64,000 bases of DNA. It comes from Escherichia coli (GTDB lineage: Bacteria > Pseudomonadota > Gammaproteobacteria > Enterobacterales > Enterobacteriaceae). Within the stretch, counting starts at the first letter, position 1. Each line of letters begins with the position of its first letter. The position numbers were made by a program, and so were the translations under genes. Shown here piece by piece: positions 42,525 through 54,082 of the stretch. The notes under the pieces were generated by a model. That model did no database searches, was not told the origin of the DNA, and was given only the letters and a program-made list of their open reading frames with translations. The stretch lies in NCBI RefSeq assembly GCF_002854065.1, contig NZ_CP024147.1; one strand, given 5' to 3'.

Positions 42525-42957
42525 TTTCTTACTCCTTTCACCCAAAAAAAGCGCACAACGACACACGCGTGTCTGACGTGACAAGGATAGTCCAGGACAG
42601 GCTTGCAGGATACCCTTTCTACGTAATCTTCCTGGTAAAATCATGGAGAAAATGAAACAAGGTTAATTTGTTGTTTCATTGTTAAAAAATGATATTGCCG
42701 TTGCCTTTTTTGTAGCCAGAGATTTACGCCTTCGCAGAAGGTTAGATTTTCGAAATCTTTACAAACCAGGAGTGGTAAGAGATATATCGGCATTTATCAG
42801 ATCGTTAGGTGGCTATAAGTCACGCTAAATGACTGGCTGAATCGAATCATAGCCAGAGCATGCCCTGACTTCACCCCGCTGTGTCTGCTTTTCCCGACTA
42901 TTCTTAATGAGCTTCGATGCAATTCACGATCCCGCAGTGTGATTTGAGGAGTTTTCA

Positions 42958-43248
42958 ATGGAATATAAAGATCCAATGCATGAGCTGTTGAGCAGCCTGG
43001 AACAGATTGTTTTTAAAGATGAAACGCAGAAAATTACCCTGACGCACAGAACAACGTCCTGTACCGAAATTGAGCAGTTACGAAAAGGGACAGGATTAAA
43101 AATCGATGATTTCGCCCGGGTTTTGGGCGTATCAGTCGCCATGGTAAAGGAATGGGAATCCAGACGCGTGAAGCCTTCAAGTGCCGAACTAAAATTGATG
43201 CGTTTGATTCAAGCCAACCCGGCATTAAGTAAGCAGTTGATGGAATAG
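42958..43248 (+). CDS. yiaG: Xre-family HTH transcriptional regulator YiaG
   Basis: 96-aa ORF with HTH segment TGLKIDDFARVLGVSVAMVKEWESRR. Confidence 0.85.
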   Translation: MEYKDPMHELLSSLEQIVFKDETQKITLTHRTTSCTEIEQLRKGTGLKIDDFARVLGVSVAMVKEWESRRVKPSSAELKLMRLIQANPALSKQLME

Positions 43249-43369
43249 ACTTTTATCCACTTTATTGCTGTTTACGGTCCTGATGACAGGACCGTTTTCC
43301 AACCGATTAATCATAAATATGAAAAATAATTGTTGCATCACCCGCCAATGCGTGGCTTAATGCACATCA

Positions 43370-43528
43370 ACGGTTTGACGTACAGACCATTAAAGCAGTG
43401 TAGTAAGGCAAGTCCCTTCAAGAGTTATCGTTGATACCCCTCGTAGTGCACATTCCTTTAACGCTTCAAAATCTGTAAAGCACGCCATATCGCCGAAAGG
43501 CACACTTAATTATTAAAGGTAATACACT
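43370..43528 (+). promoter_or_regulatory. cspA promoter and long 5' UTR (cold-shock regulatory leader)
   Basis: About 160 bp of leader upstream of the cspA ATG with RBS aggtaat; assignment by homology to the known cspA leader, boundaries approximate. Confidence 0.5.
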
Positions 43529-43741
43529 ATGTCCGGTAAAATGACTGGTATCGTAAAATGGTTCAACGCTGACAAAGGCTTCGGCTTCATCACTCCTGAC
43601 GATGGCTCTAAAGACGTGTTCGTACACTTCTCTGCTATCCAGAACGATGGTTACAAATCTCTGGACGAAGGTCAGAAAGTGTCCTTCACCATCGAAAGCG
43701 GCGCTAAAGGCCCGGCAGCTGGTAACGTAACCAGCCTGTAA
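43529..43741 (+). CDS. cspA: Major cold-shock protein CspA
   Basis: 70-aa [73 protein letters not shown] with RNP1/RNP2 motifs. Confidence 0.95.
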
Positions 43742-43768
43742 TCTCTGCTTAAAAGCACAGAATCTAAG

Positions 43769-43800
43769 ATCCCTGCCATTTGGCGGGGATTTTTTTATTT
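43769..43800 (+). terminator. Rho-independent terminator of cspA
   Basis: atccctgcc-attt-ggcggggat hairpin followed by tttttttattt. Confidence 0.7.
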
Positions 43801-43927
43801 GTTTTTCAGGAAATAAATAATCGATCGCGTAATAAAATCTAGTATTATTTTTGTGAAAAATAAATTTGGGTGCAATGAGAATGCGCAACGCCGTAAGAAA
43901 GGCGGGAATAACTTCCCGCCGAAGACT

Positions 43928-44066
43928 CTTACTCTTTCAAATTGCAGGCTAAAAATGCCGCCAGCTCATAACCCCCCTGTTTAATATGCAATTCACACAG
44001 TGAATCTCTTATCATCCAGGTGAAAAATAAAAGCGTGAAACAAATGGGTGCAGTACACTTTTTGAT
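43928..44066 (-). pseudogene. hokA: hokA-like Hok-family type I toxin remnant, 5'-truncated (no start codon, N-terminal residues replaced)
   Basis: Minus frame reads (stop)IKKCTAPICFTLLFFTWMIRDSLCELHIKQGGYELAAFLACNLKE(stop). The last 37 residues match recalled HokA; the first 13 (MPQKYRLLSLIV...) are missing and no ATG/GTG/TTG precedes the conserved part in frame. Confidence 0.5.
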
Positions 44067-44264
44067 TTATAGTCAGGTGGGACTTTTCTCTGTCTGCCTT
44101 TCGGTGAATACCTGAGACAAACAGTCTCAAGCACCCGTGGCTATTCTAGCTTAATAAGTTTGTTTCTTCTCCTTGATATAATCCTAAAAAATCTCATAAA
44201 ATTAATATATGAGATAATCTTTATTCAGCAGAAGATTATTAAAGGTTGCTGTATTATTTAGCGA

Positions 44265-44296
44265 TAAAAAAAGCCTGCCAGATGGCAGGCTTTTTA
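44265..44296 (-). terminator. Bidirectional Rho-independent terminator downstream of glyS
   Basis: aaaaaa-gcctgcca-gat-ggcaggc-ttttt, 13 bp 3' of the glyS stop. Confidence 0.6.
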
Positions 44297-44308
44297 ATAA
44301 CGGCGTTA

Positions 44309-46378
44309 TTACTGCAACAGCGAAATATCCGCAACGCGCAGGAACAGTTCGCGCAGTTTCTCCAGCATGGTCAGACGGTTGATACGCAATTCTTTGTCAT
44401 CAACCATGACCATCACTTTATCGAAGAAGGCATCGACCGGTTCACGCAGCTCTGCCAGTTCGACCAGCGCATCCTGGTAACGACCTTCCGCAAAGTACGG
44501 CTCCAGCTTGTCACGTAGCACCACAACCTGCATCGCCAGTTTAATTTCTTCCGGCTCTTTCAGAGTAGAGGCATTCACGCGATCGCTCAGCACTTCGTCA
44601 GATTTCGCCAGGATGTTAGATACACGTTTGTTCGCCGCCGCCAGTGCTGCAGCTGCTTCCAGGGTACGGAAGTGCGATACCGCTTTCATGCGGGCATCGA
44701 AATCAGCCGGACGAGTCGGACGACGCGCCAGTACCGCCTGGATGGTGTCAACGGTATAACCTTCGTCCTGATACCAGGCGCGGAAGCGACCGAGCATAAA
44801 GTCGATAACATCATCAACTACGTTGGCATTAGTCAGCTTATCGCCATACAGACGCACCGCTTCTTCGGTCAGCGTTTGCAGATCAAGGTTGAGGTTCTTC
44901 TCAACGATAATTCGCAGCACGCCAAGTGCGGCACGACGCAGCGCAAACGGGTCTTTGTCGCCTTTCGGATGCTGACCGATACCGAAGATACCCGCCAGAG
45001 TATCCATCTTATCAGCAATCGCCAGCGCACAAGCTACCGGGTTGGACGGCAGGTCATCACCGGCAAAGCGCGGCTGATACTGCTCATTCAGCGCGACGGC
45101 TACGTCTTCCGCTTCGCCATCGTGACGCGCGTAGTGCATCCCCATAACGCCTTGGGTGTCGGTGAACTCGAAGACCATGTTGGTCATCAGGTCACACTTA
45201 GACAGCAGGCCCGCACGGGTTGCGTGGTTAACGTCAGCGCCAATCTGTTCGGCGATCCAGCCAGCCAGCGCCTGGATGCGGTCAGTTTTGTCACGCAGCG
45301 TACCCAGCTGTTGCTGGAACAGCACGGTTTGCAGACGCGGCAGGTTATCTTCCAGACGTTTTTTACGGTCGGTGTTGAAGAAGAACTCGGCATCAGCCAG
45401 ACGTGGACGAACGACTTTCTCGTTACCAGAGATAATTTGCTGCGGATCTTTCGATTCGATGTTGGCAACGAAGATAAAGTTCGGCAGCAGTTTGCCGTCG
45501 TTCGCATACACCGGGAAGTACTTCTGGTCACCTTTCATGGTGTAAACCAGTGCTTCAGACGGCACCGCGAGGAATTTCTCTTCAAATTTCGCGGTTAGAA
45601 CGACCGGCCACTCCACCAGCGAAGCCACTTCTTCCAGCAGGCTTTCGCTTAAGTCAGCGTTACCGCCAATCTTACGCGCTGCTTCTTCGGCATCGGCTTT
45701 AATCTTCGCCTTACGTTCTTCGTAATCGGCGATGACTTTCCCACGCTCACGCAGAATTTCCGGATACTGATCGGCGTTATCGATGGTGAATTCCGGCTCG
45801 CCCATAAAGCGGTGGCCGCGAATCACGCGATCGGACTGAATGCCCAGAATGGTTGCAGGAATGACTTTGTCGCCCAGCAGCAGGGTCACGGTGTGCACCG
45901 GACGCACGAAGTGCACGTCGCTTGCACCCCAGCGCATCAGTTTCGGAATCGGCAGTTTCGCCAGCGAAGTCGCAACCATATTCGGCAGCAGTGCTTCAGT
46001 GCTTTCGCCCTTCACATGGGCGCGATACAGCAGCCATTCGCCTTTATCGGTAGTCAGACGCTCAGCCTGGTCAACGGTAATACCGCAACCACGCGCCCAA
46101 CCTTCTGCCGCTTTGCTCGGTTTGCCTTCAGCGTCGAACGCCTGGGCAATCGCCGGGCCGCGTTTTTCGATTTCACGATCCGGTTGCGCTTCCGCCAGGT
46201 TAGCTACTTTCAGCGCCAGACGACGCGGAGCAGCAAACCATTGAACGGTGCCGTGTGCGAGGCCAGCGTTATCCAGCTCCGCAGTAAAGTTCGCAGCAAA
46301 GGACTCTGCCAGGCTGCGCAGTGCTTTTGGTGGCAGCTCTTCAGTGCCGATTTCCACCAGAAAAGTTTTCTCAGACAT
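44309..46378 (-). CDS. glyS: Glycine--tRNA ligase beta subunit
   Basis: 689-aa [31 protein letters not shown]...; stop lies 9 bp downstream of the glyQ stop. Confidence 0.95.
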
Positions 46379-46387
46379 AGCCGCCTC

Positions 46388-47299
46388 TTACTTATCTTTG
46401 TTGCACATCGGGAAGCCGAGGGCTTCACGGGAAGCGTAATATGCTTCTGCCACTGCTTTGGTCAGGGTGCGAATGCGCAGAATGTAGCGCTGACGCTCGG
46501 TGACGGAGATGGCTTTACGCGCATCCAGCAGGTTGAAGCTGTGGGCGGCTTTCAGAATACGCTCGTAAGCTGGCAGCGGCAGCGGATTTTCCAGCGCCAG
46601 CAGCTGCTGCGCTTCTTTCTCGTACTGCTCAAAGCAGGTGAACAGGAAGTCCACGTCCGCGTATTCGAAGTTGTAAGTGGACTGCTCCACTTCGTTCTGA
46701 TGGAACACGTCGCCGTAGGTGGTTTTACCCAGCGGGCCGTCGCTCCAGACCAGGTCGTAAACGCTGTCTACGCCCTGAATGTACATGGCCAGACGTTCCA
46801 GACCGTAGGTGATCTCGCCGGTAACCGGTTTACACTCCAGACCACCAACCTGCTGGAAGTAAGTGAACTGCGTCACTTCCATGCCGTTTAGCCACACTTC
46901 CCAGCCCAGTCCCCAGGCACCCAGCGTCGGGTTTTCCCAGTTATCTTCCACGAAACGGATATCGTGGATAGTCGGGTCCATGCCCAGCTCTTTCAGAGAA
47001 CCAAGGTACAGCTCCTGAATATTGTCCGGCGATGGCTTAATGACCACCTGGAACTGATAGTAGTGCTGTAAACGGTTGGGGTTTTCGCCGTAGCGACCAT
47101 CGGTCGGGCGACGAGAAGGCTGAACATAAGCAGCCGCCATCGGTTCTGGCCCCAGCGCGCGCAGACAGGTCATTGGGTGAGAGGTTCCCGCGCCGACTTC
47201 CATGTCCAATGGTTGAACAATGGTGCAGCCCTGGCGAGCCCAGTAATCCTGTAAGGTCAGGATCAAGCCCTGGAAGGTCCTGGTATCAAACTTTTGCAT
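46388..47299 (-). CDS. glyQ: Glycine--tRNA ligase alpha subunit
   Basis: 303-aa [45 protein letters not shown].... Confidence 0.95.
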
Positions 47300-47393
47300 A
47301 TTATTTCGTGCTGGATACGTGTGGATTTAAAGGAAGGGATCAGTATACCCGCTGGATGGAAGATATACAGTATGAAACGGGAAAAAGCAGGGC

Positions 47394-47693
47394 TTAACGC
47401 ATGGAAAGATGCAAAAAATGGCCATCTGCGTCAAAAGAACAGACAAACTGCTCTTTACGGAAGGTATAACCGCGCATTTCATAGCTTCCCTGGAACTGTT
47501 CGAAGGCGGTGACGTCGATTTTTTGCTCGCCGGTGTTATAACGTTTTGCCGCCTGATCCTTGCATAACGCTTCCATATTCAACGAACGCAGAGGATCAAC
47601 CTTTACCCGTTGTGCTTTCTGCACGGGTGACGGTGTAGAACAACCCACTAGCACCATAAGCGCCATTGCCGGAAAGAAAGCGTTCATCATCAT
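47394..47693 (-). CDS. ysaB: Lipoprotein YsaB
   Basis: 99-aa ORF with signal peptide and lipobox (MALMVLVGCSTPSP). Confidence 0.8.
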   Translation of the reverse strand: MMMNAFFPAMALMVLVGCSTPSPVQKAQRVKVDPLRSLNMEALCKDQAAKRYNTGEQKIDVTAFEQFQGSYEMRGYTFRKEQFVCSFDADGHFLHLSMR

Positions 47694-47867
47694 TAAATTA
47701 CCGTCTGGTTTGCAGGTGAGTCTTATTATTTATATCGGTATAGTGGCTGATATCTTACGAATTTCCTTAAGCCTCTATAAGCTGTAGTGTTAAAACTCAG
47801 ATTATTCCAGTGCGCCAACTGAATGATTTATCGGTCAGACTTTTTTTAACCAGATACAGAGACACAG

Positions 47868-48863
47868 ATGCAGCCCAAAATTTACTGGATTGATAACCTG
47901 CGAGGGATAGCGTGTTTAATGGTGGTGATGATTCACACCACTACCTGGTATGTGACCAATGCTCATAGTGTTAGCCCCGTCACCTGGGATATCGCCAATG
48001 TTCTGAACTCTGCCTCTCGTGTCAGCGTGCCGCTATTTTTCATGATTTCCGGCTATCTCTTTTTTGGCGAACGCAGCGCCCAGCCGCGCCATTTCTTGCG
48101 TATCGGCTTATGTCTGTTTTTTTATAGCGCAATCGCGCTGCTCTACATTGCACTGTTTACCTCCATTAATGTGGAGTTAGCGCTGAAAAACCTGCTGCAA
48201 AAGCCAGTGTTTTACCACTTATGGTTTTTCTTCGCGATTGCGGTGATTTATCTGGTTTCACCGCTGATTCAGGTGAAGAACGTCGGCGGAAAAATGTTGC
48301 TGGTGCTAATGGTGGTGATTGGTATCATCGCTAACCCAAACACCGTGCCGCAGAAAATCGACGGTTTTGAATGGCTGCCAATTAACTTATATATCAATGG
48401 CGATACTTTTTACTACATTCTGTATGGCATGTTGGGCCGCGCTTTAGGGATGATGGACACACAGCATAAAGCACTGTCGTGGGTGAGCGCCGCACTGTTT
48501 GCGACGGGAGTTTTTATTATCTCTCGCGGGACATTATATGAATTGCAGTGGCGCGGAAATTTTGCCGATACCTGGTATCTTTACTGTGGGCCGATGGTTT
48601 TTATCTGCGCAATCGCGCTATTGACTCTGGTTAAAAACACGCTGGATACGCGTACCATTCGCGGACTTGGCTTAATCTCCCGCCATTCGTTGGGTATATA
48701 CGGATTCCACGCCTTGATTATCCATGCGCTGCGCACCCGGGGAATTGAGCTTAAAAATTGGCCAATACTGGATATTATTTGGATTTTTTGCGCGACGTTG
48801 GCAGCGAGTTTGTTACTTTCTATGCTGGTACAACGAATCGACAGAAACAGATTAGTGAGTTAA
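47868..48863 (+). CDS. wecH: O-acetyltransferase WecH (acyltransferase-3 family membrane protein)
   Basis: 331-aa polytopic [28 protein letters not shown].... Confidence 0.85.
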
Positions 48864-48866
48864 GTA

Positions 48867-48897
48867 AAAGCCCGGTCACATTGGACTGACCGGGCTT
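48867..48897. terminator. Hairpin between convergent wecH and yiaA (terminator-like, best fit for the minus strand)
   Basis: aagcccggtca-cattggac-tgaccgggctt; a U-run follows on the minus-strand transcript. Confidence 0.5.
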
Positions 48898-49421
48898 ACG
48901 TGAGTTATTCGCTGTATTCTTCCTGGGTAACCTGTGTTTCTTTTGGTGGGTTTATTCCGGCATCACGAATATTTTTCTGCACCGCTACTGCACCAAACAA
49001 GCTTAAGAAGAAAGCCAGTCCATAAAAACCTTTTTCGCTGAGTAATAATGTCGCATTCCACAGACCTACCATCAGTAATGCAACAGAGATAATAAAGACA
49101 GTCAGGCAGGTCATATAATAAATGGAAGTGGTCGGTATGCCTTCATACTTGTCCCGAACAGTCTTTTGATAAGACGCCGCAGAAAACAGTCCTAATACCA
49201 GTACGGCAAAATAATATCCTTTTTCATTTAACTGCATCTCTGCATTCCATAGCCCTAACAGATAGGTAACGATACCACCAACGAGAGCTATCCATGACAC
49301 AATACTAAAGGCCGGTGAATAGGTTGATATTAGACTGGCCCCCTGAATCTCCAGACAACCAATATCACTTAAATAAGTGATAGTCTTAATACTAGTTTTT
49401 AGACTAGTCATTGGAGAACAG

Positions 49422-49787
49422 ATGATTGATGTCTTAGGGCCGGAGAAACGCAGACGGCGTACCACACAGGAAAAGATCGCAATTGTTCAGCAGAGCTTTG
49501 AACCGGGGATGACGGTCTCCCTCGTTGCCCGGCAACATGGTGTAGCAGCCAGCCAGTTATTTCTCTGGCGTAAGCAATACCAGGAAGGAAGTCTTACTGC
49601 TGTCGCCGCCGGAGAACAGGTTGTTCCTGCCTCTGAACTTGCTGCCGCCATGAAGCAGATTAAAGAACTCCAGCGCCTGCTCGGCAAGAAAACGATGGAA
49701 AATGAACTCCTCAAAGAAGCCGTTGAATATGGACGGGCAAAAAAGTGGATAGCGCACGCGCCCTTATTGCCCGGGGATGGGGAGTAA
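49422..49787 (+). CDS. insC: IS2 OrfA (InsC), HTH transposase N-terminal component
   Basis: 121-aa frame from [41 protein letters not shown]...; the track ORF starts 45 nt earlier at an upstream ATG. Confidence 0.9.
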
Positions 49788-50650
49788 GCTTAGTCAGCCG
49801 TTGTCTCCGGGTGTCGCGTGCGCAGTTGCACGTCATTCTCAGACGAACCGATGACTGGATGGATGGCCGCCGCAGTCGTCACACTGATGATACGGATGTG
49901 CTTCTCCGTATACACCATGTTATCGGAGAGCTGCCCACGTATGGTTATCGTCGGGTATGGGCGCTGCTTCGCAGACAGGCAGAACTTGATGGTATGCCTG
50001 CGATCAATGCCAAACGTGTTTACCGGATCATGCGCCAGAATGCGCTGTTGCTTGAGCGAAAACCTGCTGTACCGCCATCGAAACGGGCACATACAGGCAG
50101 AGTGGCCGTGAAAGAAAGCAATCAGCGATGGTGCTCTGACGGGTTCGAGTTCTGCTGTGATAACGGAGAGAGACTGCGTGTCACGTTCGCGCTGGACTGC
50201 TGTGATCGTGAGGCACTGCACTGGGCGGTCACTACCGGCGGCTTCAACAGTGAAACAGTACAGGACGTCATGCTGGGAGCGGTGGAACGCCGCTTCGGCA
50301 ACGATCTTCCGTCGTCTCCAGTGGAGTGGCTGACGGATAATGGTTCATGCTACCGGGCTAATGAAACACGCCAGTTCGCCCGGATGTTGGGACTTGAACC
50401 GAAGAACACGGCGGTGCGGAGTCCGGAGAGTAACGGAATAGCAGAGAGCTTCGTGAAAACGATAAAGCGTGACTACATCAGTATCATGCCCAAACCAGAC
50501 GGGTTAACGGCAGCAAAGAACCTTGCAGAGGCGTTCGAGCATTATAACGAATGGCATCCGCATAGTGCGCTGGGTTATCGCTCGCCACGGGAATATCTGC
50601 GGCAGCGGGCTTGTAATGGGTTAAGTGATAACAGATGTCTGGAAATATAG
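49745..50650 (+). CDS. insD: IS2 OrfB (InsD), DDE integrase-fold transposase component (fused to OrfA by -1 frameshift)
   Basis: 301-aa [26 protein letters not shown]... overlapping the insC 3' end in the -1 frame. Confidence 0.9.
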
Positions 50651-50723
50651 GGGCAAATCCAGATATTTTGTTGTCCATCACAGTATTCCTTTCATTCCTG
50701 AATGTGTAAGAGCTTTATATTGC

Positions 50724-51065
50724 TCATACCGAGCGAAACAAACGCATTTGACCAAACAAGCAGACAAAAAAGGCGATGGGGTAGATCACCATTTCATAAG
50801 CATTGATAGGTGCATTTAAAACACCGATAAACAAGAGACCGATAGTGATTAACGCAACTAACTGGCAAATATGGGTAAAAAAATTATCCAGTTGCCCGCG
50901 TTTTTCTGCGCGAAGATATGCATAGTTGCCAAAAGTTGCTGTCATTAACACGCCAAGAAAATAGCCTTTTCCACTCAACAATGGGCATGAGATCCATAGC
51001 CCAACCAGATAAACCAGCGCCCCGACAACAAATAATAGTTTTGCCACAGTTTTTGAGGTTTTCAT
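50724..51065 (-). CDS. yiaB: Inner-membrane protein YiaB (paralog of YiaA)
   Basis: ORF 50724..51107; start trimmed to MKTSKTVAKLLFVVGALVYLVGLWISCPLL (113 aa); same two-helix-hairpin pattern as the yiaA product. Confidence 0.8.
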   Translation of the reverse strand: MKTSKTVAKLLFVVGALVYLVGLWISCPLLSGKGYFLGVLMTATFGNYAYLRAEKRGQLDNFFTHICQLVALITIGLLFIGVLNAPINAYEMVIYPIAFFVCLFGQMRLFRSV

Positions 51066-51233
51066 AACGATCTCCATATCTACCAGCGATACATTACGAG
51101 TAACCAACGAAAGACAAAACTGAAAAATGCCATTAACAAATGATTTTCAGAATAAATTCATACTAAATATTAATTAATTACTGAGATATATAGATGTGAA
51201 TTATCCCCCACCCGGTCAGGCAGGGGATAACGT

Positions 51234-52688
51234 TTACGCCATTAATGGCAGAAGTTGCTGATAGAGGCGACGGAACGTTTCTCGTCGTGGCTGATAAGCG
51301 GCATAACGCTGCGCATCTGGTAGATGCGACTGTTCTAACGGTAGCTGCGGCAACAACTCAATGAGCGATTTCTCTGGATTCGCCGCAATCTGCGCCAGCC
51401 TTGCTGCGCCCAGTGCTGGCCCCACATCCCCCCCCGTACGGTAATCGAGCTGCTGACCGCTGATATCCGCCAGCATCTGACGCCAGTACTCACTACGCGC
51501 CCCGCCACCAATCAACGTAACACTTTGCGGTTTAATGCCGCAGGCATGCACGACATCCATGCCATCTGCCAGCGCATAACCCACGCCTTCCAGCACTGCT
51601 CGCGCCAGTTCATTGGGGCCATGTTGATGAGTCAAACCAAAGAAAACCCCCTTCGCCTGGGGATTATTGTGTGGCGTACGCTCGCCGGAAAGATAAGGCA
51701 GAAACCAAACTGGCTCGGCACTTTCATCAGCCTGTTGAGCTGCAGCGATTAAAGCTGGGACATTGCTCAGGCCGGTTAATTTCGCGGCCCAATCCAGACA
51801 TGACGCTGCACTCAGCATTACAGACATTAAATGCCAACGCTGCGGTAGCGCATGGCAAAAGCTGTGTACGGCGCTTTCTGGCTTGCTTAAAAACCCTTCG
51901 CTGACAGCAAAATAGACCCCCGACGTCCCCAGCGATAACATTGCCTGATTAGCATCAACCATTCCCACACCAACCGCACCAGCTGCATTGTCGCCACCGC
52001 CTGCGATAACTGGCACCGCCGCCATACCCCACGCTTTCGCAATTTCAGGTAACAAAGCACCAGTAATTTCGCTGCCTTCGTATAATGCGGGCATCTGGTC
52101 ACGAGATAAGTCGCAAGCCTGCAGCATGACGTCACTCCAGTCACGCTTTGCGACATCCAGCCACATGGTGCCAGCTGCGTCAGACATATCGCTGGCAAAC
52201 TCCCCCGTCATACGCAGACGCAAGTAATCTTTCGGTAATAATACTTTGTCGATTTGACGGAATATCTCCGGCTCATGCCGCTGGATCCATAGCAATTTAG
52301 GCGCAGTAAATCCGGGCATCATCAGATTGCCGGTAATCACTCGTGATTGCGGAACTCTCGCTTCCAGCAAAGTGCACTCTTGCGCACAGCGCCCGTCGTT
52401 CCACAAAATGGCAGGGCGCAATACCCGTTGTTGAGCATCCAGTAAGGTTGCTCCATGCATCTGGCCGGCAATACCCAATGCTTTAACGTCCTGCAGAGAA
52501 TGCTGATCGCCCAGAGCTTTCATTGCGCGATCAGTTGCCTGCCACCACTGTTCCGGGTCTTGTTCCGACCAGAGTGGATGCGGGCGCGAAACGGTCAGCT
52601 TTTCCGTTTGCGAAGCAACCACCTCACCCTGCTCGTTAAGCAAAATAACTTTTACGCCCGAGGTGCCAAGATCTATCCCGATATACAT
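51234..52688 (-). CDS. xylB: Xylulokinase
   Basis: 484-aa ORF MYIGIDLGTSGVKVILLNEQGEVVASQTEKL... (FGGY kinase family). Confidence 0.95.
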   Translation of the reverse strand: MYIGIDLGTSGVKVILLNEQGEVVASQTEKLTVSRPHPLWSEQDPEQWWQATDRAMKALGDQHSLQDVKALGIAGQMHGATLLDAQQRVLRPAILWNDGRCAQECTLLEARVPQSRVITGNLMMPGFTAPKLLWIQRHEPEIFRQIDKVLLPKDYLRLRMTGEFASDMSDAAGTMWLDVAKRDWSDVMLQACDLSRDQMPALYEGSEITGALLPEIAKAWGMAAVPVIAGGGDNAAGAVGVGMVDANQAMLSLGTSGVYFAVSEGFLSKPESAVHSFCHALPQRWHLMSVMLSAASCLDWAAKLTGLSNVPALIAAAQQADESAEPVWFLPYLSGERTPHNNPQAKGVFFGLTHQHGPNELARAVLEGVGYALADGMDVVHACGIKPQSVTLIGGGARSEYWRQMLADISGQQLDYRTGGDVGPALGAARLAQIAANPEKSLIELLPQLPLEQSHLPDAQRYAAYQPRRETFRRLYQQLLPLMA

Positions 52689-52759
52689 ATCGATCGTTCC
52701 TTAAAAAAATGCCCGGTATCGCTACCGATAACCGGGCCAACGGACTGCACAGTTAGCCG

Positions 52760-54082
52760 TTATTTGTCGAACAGATAATGATTTACCAGATTTTCCAGTT
52801 GCTCCTGGCGACCACTCTGATGCACCGGAGACAAATTATGTTCCTGAGCATATTTGGCTAAATCTGCCAGTGACATTTGGCCTTTCAGGATTTGCTGGCC
52901 TAATTCGCTATTCCAGCCGGAATAACGCTGCGCGATGCGTTTATCCAGCTCGCCATCTTCAATCATGCGCGCTGCAATTTTCAGCGCCAGTGCCATCGTA
53001 TCCATCGCGCCGATATGACCGTAAAACAGATCATATTTATCAGTACTTTGACGACGTACTTTGGCATCGAAGTTCAGACCGCCGGTGGTGAAACCGCCTG
53101 CTTTGAGAATTTCATACATTACCAGCGCATTCTCTTCCACACTGTTCGGGAACTGATCGGTGTCCCAGCCCAGTTGAGCATCGCCACGGTTCGCGTCGAC
53201 AGAACCAAACAGGCCAAGCGCAATGGCGGTGGCAATTTCATGATGGAAAGAGTGACCTGCCAGCGTCGCGTGGTTAGCTTCAATGTTCAGTTTAATCTCT
53301 TTTTCCAGACCAAACTGTTTCAGGAAGCCATAGACTGTCGCAGCATCGTAATCATATTGATGTTTAGTCGGTTCTTGCGGTTTCGGTTCGATAAGCAACG
53401 TGCCCTGGAAGCCGATTTTATGTTTATGCTCAACCACCATTTGCATAAAGCGGCCCAGTTGTTCACGCTCCTGACGCAAATCGGTATTTAACAGCGTTTC
53501 GTAACCTTCACGACCGCCCCACAGGACATAGTTTTCACCACCCAATTTATGGGTTGCTTCCATCGCTGTAACAACTTGCGTTGCCGCCCAGCTGAAGACT
53601 TCTGGATCTGGGTTCGTCGCCGCACCCGCGCCATAGCGAGGGTTTGTAAAGCAGTTAGCGGTTCCCCACAGCAGCTTCACGCCGCTCTCTTCTTGCTTGC
53701 CTGCCAGGACATCAACCATTTGCGCAAAATTATTGATGTACTCTTTTAACGACGCGCCCTCAGGGGAAACATCCACATCGTGGAAGCAATAAAATGGCAC
53801 ATGTAACTTGTGGAAAAACTCAAATGCGACATCTGCTTTACGCTTCGCCAACGCCAGTGCCTCACCAGGCTGCTGCCACGGACGATTAAACGCCCCCACA
53901 CCAAACATATCCGCCCCGTTCCAGCAGAAGGTGTGCCAGTAGCAGGCGGCAAATCGCAAGTGCTCTTCCATACGCTTGCCCAACACCAGTTCGTCGGGAT
54001 TGTAGTGACGGAATGCTAACGGGTTTGAGGATTTTGAGCCTTCATAACGAACGCGATCGAGCTGGTCAAAATAGGCTTGCAT
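52760..54082 (-). CDS. xylA: Xylose isomerase
   Basis: ORF 52760..54094; start trimmed to [28 protein letters not shown] (440 aa). Confidence 0.95.

Follow-up and report, generated by a model that had tools for sequence, protein, structure and literature searches.

In the paradigm offered by the hok/sok system of plasmid R1, translation of hok depends on the mok reading frame. Chromosomal hok loci of Escherichia coli K-12 have been inactivated by insertion sequences, with IS150 being the element found at hokA, and an interruption of the K-12 hokA locus by IS150 is reportedly described in the 1999 work of Pedersen and Gerdes (Mol Microbiol 32:1090). It is also known that insertion sequences may leave behind solo terminal-repeat scars, which arise by illegitimate deletion of the element. 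More generally, hok/sok loci have been reported to be hotspots for the insertion of mobile elements in E. coli (bioRxiv 10.1101/527788). Here we describe a hokA locus within a 64,000-nucleotide stretch of E. coli DNA (hereafter the window), which is very probably a decayed hokA/sokA type I toxin-antitoxin cassette that first received an IS150 insertion and then underwent a 1,542-bp deletion at a microhomology. In the literature library that was searched, no paper was found that describes this hokA-IS150 scar.

The hokA remnant is situated in the cspA-glyS intergenic region of the E. coli chromosome, and is flanked in the window by cspA (43529-43741, plus strand) and glyS (44309-46378, minus strand). 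In K-12 MG1655 the annotation of the equivalent interval (examined at 3719800-3722600) includes hokA, mokA and sokA, of which the last two are pseudogenes. An entire IS150 with insJ/insK lies between hokA and glyS; the original prediction had likewise placed one at this cspA-hokA-glyS locus. The two loci share the cspA-hokA-glyS arrangement, the identity of the element, an insertion point that agrees within 2 nt, and the destruction of the mok/sok control region. They differ in that both IS150 and the 50-aa hokA ORF are complete in K-12, with the element placed 32 bp upstream of the hokA ATG in the opposite orientation, its right inverted repeat (IRR) towards glyS, whereas the window preserves only 12-16 nt of the left inverted repeat (IRL) and has lost hokA codons 1-12. 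The K-12 junctions, at locus positions 834 and 2276, are bordered by GTT towards glyS and by TAC towards hokA, and on the hokA side some 40 bp of the native leader (TGAGG...GCCTCT, including the mokA Shine-Dalgarno sequence and ATG) are missing. This absence of a target duplication, taken together with the missing ~40 bp, indicates that the K-12 arrangement is itself the outcome of an insertion plus a deletion or rearrangement.

Relative to hok/sok of plasmid R1 (PF01848, RF01794), the locus in the window retains homologous counterparts of the C-terminal 38 residues and of the 5' leader hairpin, but is devoid of the mok start, the Sok target, the hok Shine-Dalgarno sequence and start, and half of the transmembrane helix. 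Its resemblance to solo IS scars is closer, as it displays a short terminal fragment of an insertion sequence that abuts a truncated host gene at a microhomology junction. There is no difference in principle from such scars, and in the present case the full-length precursor arrangement could be seen in another genome.

Some additional features of the neighborhood were recorded. A small ORF on the plus strand (43881-43952) overlaps the 3' end of hokA on the opposite strand and was left intact by the deletion; its counterparts are K-12 ysaE (b4793) and, in relatives, the 'hypothetical protein' WP_212734940.1. The CspA protein encoded at 43529-43741 on the plus strand and in relatives (WP_000014594.1) is labeled cspE in many RefSeq records ('transcription antiterminator/RNA stability regulator CspE') and cspA in others, and the Rfam cspA thermoregulator model matches the cspA mRNA with about 400 bits. 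When a 20-kb segment (34000-54000) was used as the query, none of the genomes proved identical to it; the ranking was governed mostly by coverage, with THO-010 (99.2% identity) at the top. The first ~290 nt of the segment (34000-34290) were covered by none of the best 40 genomes listed, which may reflect a difference specific to the strain around the yhjX/lpfA boundary.

Alignment to intact alleles, translation and the Pfam HOK_GEF profile delimit the hokA remnant to 43929..44045 on the minus strand, where it comprises codons 13-50 and the TAA stop (43931-43929). The minus strand of this region reads TAA (44069-44067) ATC AAA AAG TGT ACT GCA CCC ATT TGT TTC ACG..., and its translation between the two stop codons is IKKCTAPICFTLLFFTWMIRDSLCELHIKQGGYELAAFLACNLKE. 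Intact HokA begins with MPQKYRLLSLIV-ICFTLLFF... (in its full form MPQKYRLLSLIVICFTLLFF...), and hence residues 1-12 are missing in the window. The original prediction had proposed that the last 37 codons of a Hok toxin remain; this count holds if the ATT within the ATTT shared with IS150 is excluded, and becomes 38 (I13-E50) if it is included. Its accompanying description of a replaced N-terminus, with an in-frame stop and no usable start codon, was borne out: a TAA (44067..44069, minus strand) closes the frame upstream, and no ATG, GTG or TTG occurs in the remnant frame before Met23 (44015). The IS-derived codons upstream share the frame of the remnant, which has no Shine-Dalgarno sequence, the native one and the ATG both falling within the 108 nt that have been deleted. 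Against HOK_GEF (PF01848) it still scores 71 bits, but covers only model positions 9-42 of 42, as against 1-42 for intact HokA; with model positions 1-8 absent it is not a full-length HOK_GEF domain with its N-terminal transmembrane helix, of which ~10 of roughly 20 hydrophobic residues are left.

In order to define what has been lost, we aligned the window to two reference IS-free alleles (O157 AR-0429 and 2014C-3307). The window is collinear with both of these, except between ...CTATAAATCAAAG and ATTTGTTTCACGC..., where 108 nt of the intact alleles (TGAGGCC...AATAGTG) are replaced by AA followed by TGTACTGCACCC, which represents 12 IS150-specific bases. These 108 nt hold the mokA Shine-Dalgarno sequence (GAGG), the mokA ATG and 20 mokA-specific codons running in frame into hokA, as well as the Sok-target leader and the hokA Shine-Dalgarno sequence, ATG and codons 1-12. 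The sokA promoter was presumably also contained within them.

The remaining pieces of the cassette are a presumptive promoter, ~79 nt of leader, the solo IS150 end of 12-16 nt, Hok codons 13-50 and a 3' terminator hairpin. The retained 5' leader of the hokA mRNA (44063..44136, minus strand) starts at its 5' end, GGGUGCUUGAG, includes the first hairpin and stops where IS150 was inserted; it was recognized by means of Rfam RF01794, a model that in practice describes the hok leader from the 5' end to the hok AUG. The window obtains 56.9 bits with this model, which is below the gathering score of 59, whereas intact alleles obtain 119.6-124.9 bits; the confident alignment in the window is confined to model positions ~1-66 (the first hairpin, 44136 to ~44071), while the intact allele scoring 119.6 bits aligns over positions 1-157. 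Judged by the gathering score, the mok start and the Sok-complementary region, the window no longer possesses a complete hok leader. Just upstream of the leader 5' end, a TAGAAT (44143..44148, minus strand) is, from its position relative to the Rfam-defined start, a putative -10 element of the hokA promoter; a simple sigma-70 promoter scan did not call this presumed promoter, and the -10 assignment is accordingly putative. At the other extremity, the 3' end of the hokA transcript, a terminator-like hairpin, GGCGGGAAGTTATTCCCGCC, with a T-rich tail (43901..43920, minus strand) has been retained.

At the exact point where the window diverges from the intact alleles lies the 16-mer TGTACTGCACCCATTT (44042..44057, minus strand), in the position noted earlier, when it had been suspected to be the beginning of the IS150 terminal repeat. 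Reading the ends of IS150 directly from K-12 MG1655 gave TGTACTGCACCCATTTTGTTGGACG for the left end and TGTACTGACCCCAAAAAGTTGGACAG for the reverse complement of the right end, and the alignment shows that the 16-mer (44057-44042) is identical to nt 1-16 of the K-12 IRL. One refinement is necessary: nt 1-12 are IS-specific, while nt 13-16 (ATTT) are equally native hokA sequence (gtgATTTgtttc, codon 13), which limits the unambiguous IS origin to 12 nt. The match to TGTACTGCACCCATTT is unique in the window, with 0.05 matches expected even when 2 mismatches are allowed. A local blastn comparison of the whole IS150 with the window gave nothing beyond the 16-mer, with no IRR and no transposase orfA/orfB in the 64 kb, in agreement with the earlier statement that no IS150 is present. 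The fragment is thus a remnant of IS150 rather than an element, as it matches the start of the IRL but is accompanied by neither the IRR nor the frameshifted orfA/orfB. Between the leader and the IRL are the left-junction bases (44058..44062, minus strand), consisting of AAG (44060-44058), the left copy of the 3-bp target-site duplication of IS150, and two extra A residues (44062-44061) that are absent from every IS-free allele. The right AAG copy has gone with the element in the window, and both copies are visible in full-length relatives.

The most informative comparison came from a search of 5,426 complete E. coli genomes with a 53-nt query spanning the junction. The exact scar junction was present in 12 of these, and a thirteenth genome, CUPS04, matched over the flank and the IS end only. 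CUPS04 possesses a full 1,443-bp IS150 between glyS and an intact 50-aa hokA. Its left junction, ATCAAAAAG/TGTACTGCACCCATTTT (gactataaatcaaaaag/TGTACTGCACCCATTTTGTTGG), is identical to that of the window, including a run of five A residues (A5), such that the window and a full IS150 share a 37-nt junction; its right junction is GGTCAGTACA/AAGTGAGG (GGGGTCAGTACA/AAGTGAGGCCCC). Two ATTT copies in CUPS04, one at IRL nt 13-16 and the other at hokA codon 13, are 1,542 bp apart, and removal of one copy along with the intervening sequence yields the window sequence exactly. The suspicion that this locus bears the scar of an IS150-associated deletion, which also removed the hok 5' end, is therefore well founded, being upheld by the IRL 16-mer, the CUPS04 junction and the sufficiency of a single 1,542-bp deletion. 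Genomes of other E. coli lineages with IS150 in this orientation (for example CUVET16-559 and S6, and CUPS04 with the A5 variant) have the same site, orientation and AAG duplication as the window; they differ from it in bearing the full 1,443-bp element and an intact hokA ORF, the window corresponding to the state after the 1,542-bp deletion.

From these comparisons we infer the following order of events. In an ancestor, IS150 would have inserted in the hokA leader (native ...ATCAAAG^TGAGG...), directly ahead of the mokA Shine-Dalgarno sequence, with its IRL facing glyS and AAG duplicated. Subsequently, a RecA-independent deletion of 1,542 bp would have joined the ATTT of IS150 nt 13-16 to that of hokA codon 13. 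This step would have eliminated 108 nt of native sequence as well as IS150 nt 17-1443 and the AAG copy on the right, and was probably caused by replication slippage or illegitimate end joining. The location of the endpoints, inside the IRL and in hokA, the disappearance of the transposase gene and the 4-nt microhomology all favor such an illegitimate deletion over transposase action.

The two extra A residues deserve separate consideration. As native variation they were rejected: no IS-free allele with the A5 run (ATCAAAAAGTGAGG) was found, the best matches being 97.8% identical with a 2-nt gap. Shared by no genomes other than CUPS04 and the 12 with the scar, the A5 run thus represents a derived character of the IS150-bearing state. 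At the same time, the flanks of CUPS04 and the window disagree at 19 of 914 positions, as against 2-3 for the IS-free alleles of O157 and THO-010, implying that CUPS04 is not a close relative in this region and should be taken as an illustration of the precursor rather than as the ancestor. The shared A5 could be a homoplasy, produced by slippage or by a homopolymer error in the single CUPS04 assembly. The main weakness of our reconstruction lies in the distance of CUPS04 and in the two extra A residues, for which it does not account.

A related scenario, namely a deletion made by the IS150 transposase itself (adjacent deletion or abortive transposition) or derivation of the scar from an IS150 copy of the K-12 type, appears very unlikely. 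IS3-family elements do generate adjacent deletions, and the K-12 IS150, with its unduplicated flanks (GTT versus TAC) and the ~40 bp of native sequence lost on one side, attests that an IS-associated rearrangement has occurred at this locus. But transposase-mediated deletions keep an intact IS end, and usually the whole element, while here one endpoint is within the IRL (nt 12-16) and the other in hokA, the entire transposase gene is lost and the junction coincides with the ATTT microhomology. Moreover, the remnant IRL faces glyS, where K-12 has the IRR; given this opposite orientation, the scar is not derived from a K-12-type insertion. The IS150 origin suspected at the outset stands, with the refinement that the parental insertion was not the K-12 one but an IS150 of opposite orientation, a type common in other E. 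coli lineages. The illegitimate deletion between the two ATTT copies remains the reading that we adopt.

The suggested search for an intact hokA or a full IS150 at this site recovered both in abundance. The locus is IS-free and intact in ~2,800 of the 5,426 complete genomes, encoding the standard 50-aa HokA with MPQKYRLLSLIV, and with this as the norm in related strains the idea, entertained at the outset, that the window merely has a divergent allele is rejected. IS150 in the orientation of the window is found in ~908-1,006 genomes, typically as ATCAAAG/IRL...IRR/AAGTGAGG with the classical 3-bp AAG duplication, and the oppositely oriented K-12-type junction, ATCAAAGTT/IRR, in 1,467. All told, IS150 occupies the hokA insertion site in >2,400 genomes, or nearly half of the complete E. 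coli. Rare junctions have A4 (isolate 68) or GTG (R12 and 09A22CPO026), and an ST131 genome (2019_APHA) shows ATCAAAG/IRR with an IS1 inside the IS150 (locus positions 2173-2870). In THO-010 an unrelated IS2 lies between cspA and hokA (locus positions 10223-11451).

These distributions also bear on whether the 16-nt likeness to IS150 is fortuitous, or the junction an assembly artefact in which an IS has been collapsed. A 16-nt match to IS150 in 64 kb has, on its own, a blastn E-value of only 0.077. Nevertheless, the match begins precisely at nt 1 of the element, at the very site where IS150 is inserted in the genomes enumerated above, and the junction held in common with a full IS150 extends well beyond it. 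As for an artefact, the same junction recurs in 12 independently assembled complete genomes, and a collapsed repeat would have left the 108 nt of unique sequence in place. Both possibilities are effectively refuted.

We further compared the flanks of the window and 7 of the 12 scar genomes using MAFFT, the alignment containing homopolymer indels. Relative to the window, the seven genomes have 0-6 flank substitutions over 914 nt and 0-2 over 460 nt; all eight loci resolve into two sub-haplotypes, the first comprising the window, 100416 and GDSC2227PM, and the second SCU-316, O78-3, NCTC10444, KV7 and NCTC9112. By comparison, the IS150-bearing genomes show 16-31 flank substitutions relative to the window, and the nearest IS-free alleles (O157 and THO-010) 2-3. 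That 12 complete genomes of unrelated origin bear the scar, against flanks of two closely related haplotypes, indicates that it has been inherited and did not arise during assembly. A single deletion, with modest divergence or recombination thereafter, accounts for these data most simply.

The insertion site itself, ATCAAAG^TGAGG, has accepted IS150 in both orientations with junction variants of 1-2 nt: A3, A4, A5 or GTG may precede the IRL, and nothing or TT the IRR. S6, R12 and the ST131 strain share one flank haplotype and yet display three different junctions, which suggests a true hotspot and/or unstable junctions. This invites the more ambitious proposal, which we hold to be possible but doubtful, that the ATCAAAG/TGAGG bond is a sequence- or structure-specific hotspot for IS150, used again and again by insertions of either orientation on several haplotypes. 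From insertion the locus would pass cyclically through junction slippage (A3/A4/A5, GTG, GTT) to microhomology deletion, under selection for silencing of the toxin, with the window as the end state. In a weaker variant of this proposal, the promoter and the leader hairpin may still give rise to a hybrid RNA with some regulatory role.

One other allele at the site merits mention. In BS-04 (NZ_CP172819.1), about 25 nt beyond locus position 2012, the sequence reads ATCAAAG-TGTACT-ATGCCTGAACACC in place of TGAGGCTACCCT, with a 3-nt deletion further on (CTCTTTCTTGG). This allele (ATCAAAG-TGTACT-ATGCC) is limited to a single genome. It resembles an IS150 footprint shorter than that of the window, but a pair of small deletions (AGGC and CC) explains it equally well.

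Returning to the single-deletion history, its functional consequence can be predicted from the surviving sequence. Having no canonical start, no Shine-Dalgarno sequence and no mok coupling, and left with half of the membrane helix, the hokA remnant is regarded by us as a pseudogene that would be incapable of making toxin. Expression of a Hok protein is accordingly improbable, although the retained promoter may still yield a hybrid transcript of about 242 nt. Such a transcript, for which a length of 242 nt is predicted, folds stably (z = -3.6), and this fold is uninformative with regard to function.

Public annotation takes a different view. In all scar genomes inspected, PGAP gives the name 'type I toxin-antitoxin system toxin HokA' to 43929-44066, a product of 45 aa that starts at a non-canonical ATC directly after the TAA, and the feature originally delineated at 43928-44066 coincides within one base with this PGAP ORF of identical alleles. 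The corresponding proteins are WP_032213338.1 and WP_032194292.1. Of the two main 45-aa variants, both named toxin HokA, one is present on 202 public contigs and the other on at least 1,000, and a third variant (L to S) on 22; a G-for-S change was seen, among the loci examined, solely in the window and strain 100416. As these contig counts indicate, the scar allele is no rarity among draft genomes, and it has acquired substitutions.

Taken at face value, these records would portray the hokA allele as divergent yet functional, its 45-aa toxin having an alternative N-terminus (MKKCTAP...), and this portrayal could draw on the uniform PGAP calls, the wide distribution of the name and the 71-bit HOK_GEF score. 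We consider it highly improbable. The annotated ATC, placed right after the TAA, simply maximizes the ORF; it is served by no Shine-Dalgarno sequence, and the mok frame has been deleted with its own Shine-Dalgarno sequence, as have the Sok target and its leader. Furthermore, 7 of the 8 N-terminal residues of the putative toxin stem from insertion-junction bases and IS150 repeat DNA, and the hydrophobic helix is halved. The pseudogene interpretation is hence the one that we retain.

In conclusion, the scar and the pseudogene are real, but represent ordinary gene decay and entail no new mechanism. Occupancy of hokA by IS150 fits the published observations on hotspots (bioRxiv 10.1101/527788), and the scar adds one more state to those of the locus. 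It offers a clean example of IS purging, in which the full-IS arrangement and the scar can both be demonstrated, forming an unusually complete before-and-after pair, and the scar is usable as a lineage marker. Beyond its value for population genetics, the finding calls for a correction of annotation: the toxin name has spread through RefSeq and nr, onto at least 1,200 public contigs, and since the remnant bears this name, censuses of toxin-antitoxin systems based on protein names or Pfam matches will count a dead locus as a toxin.
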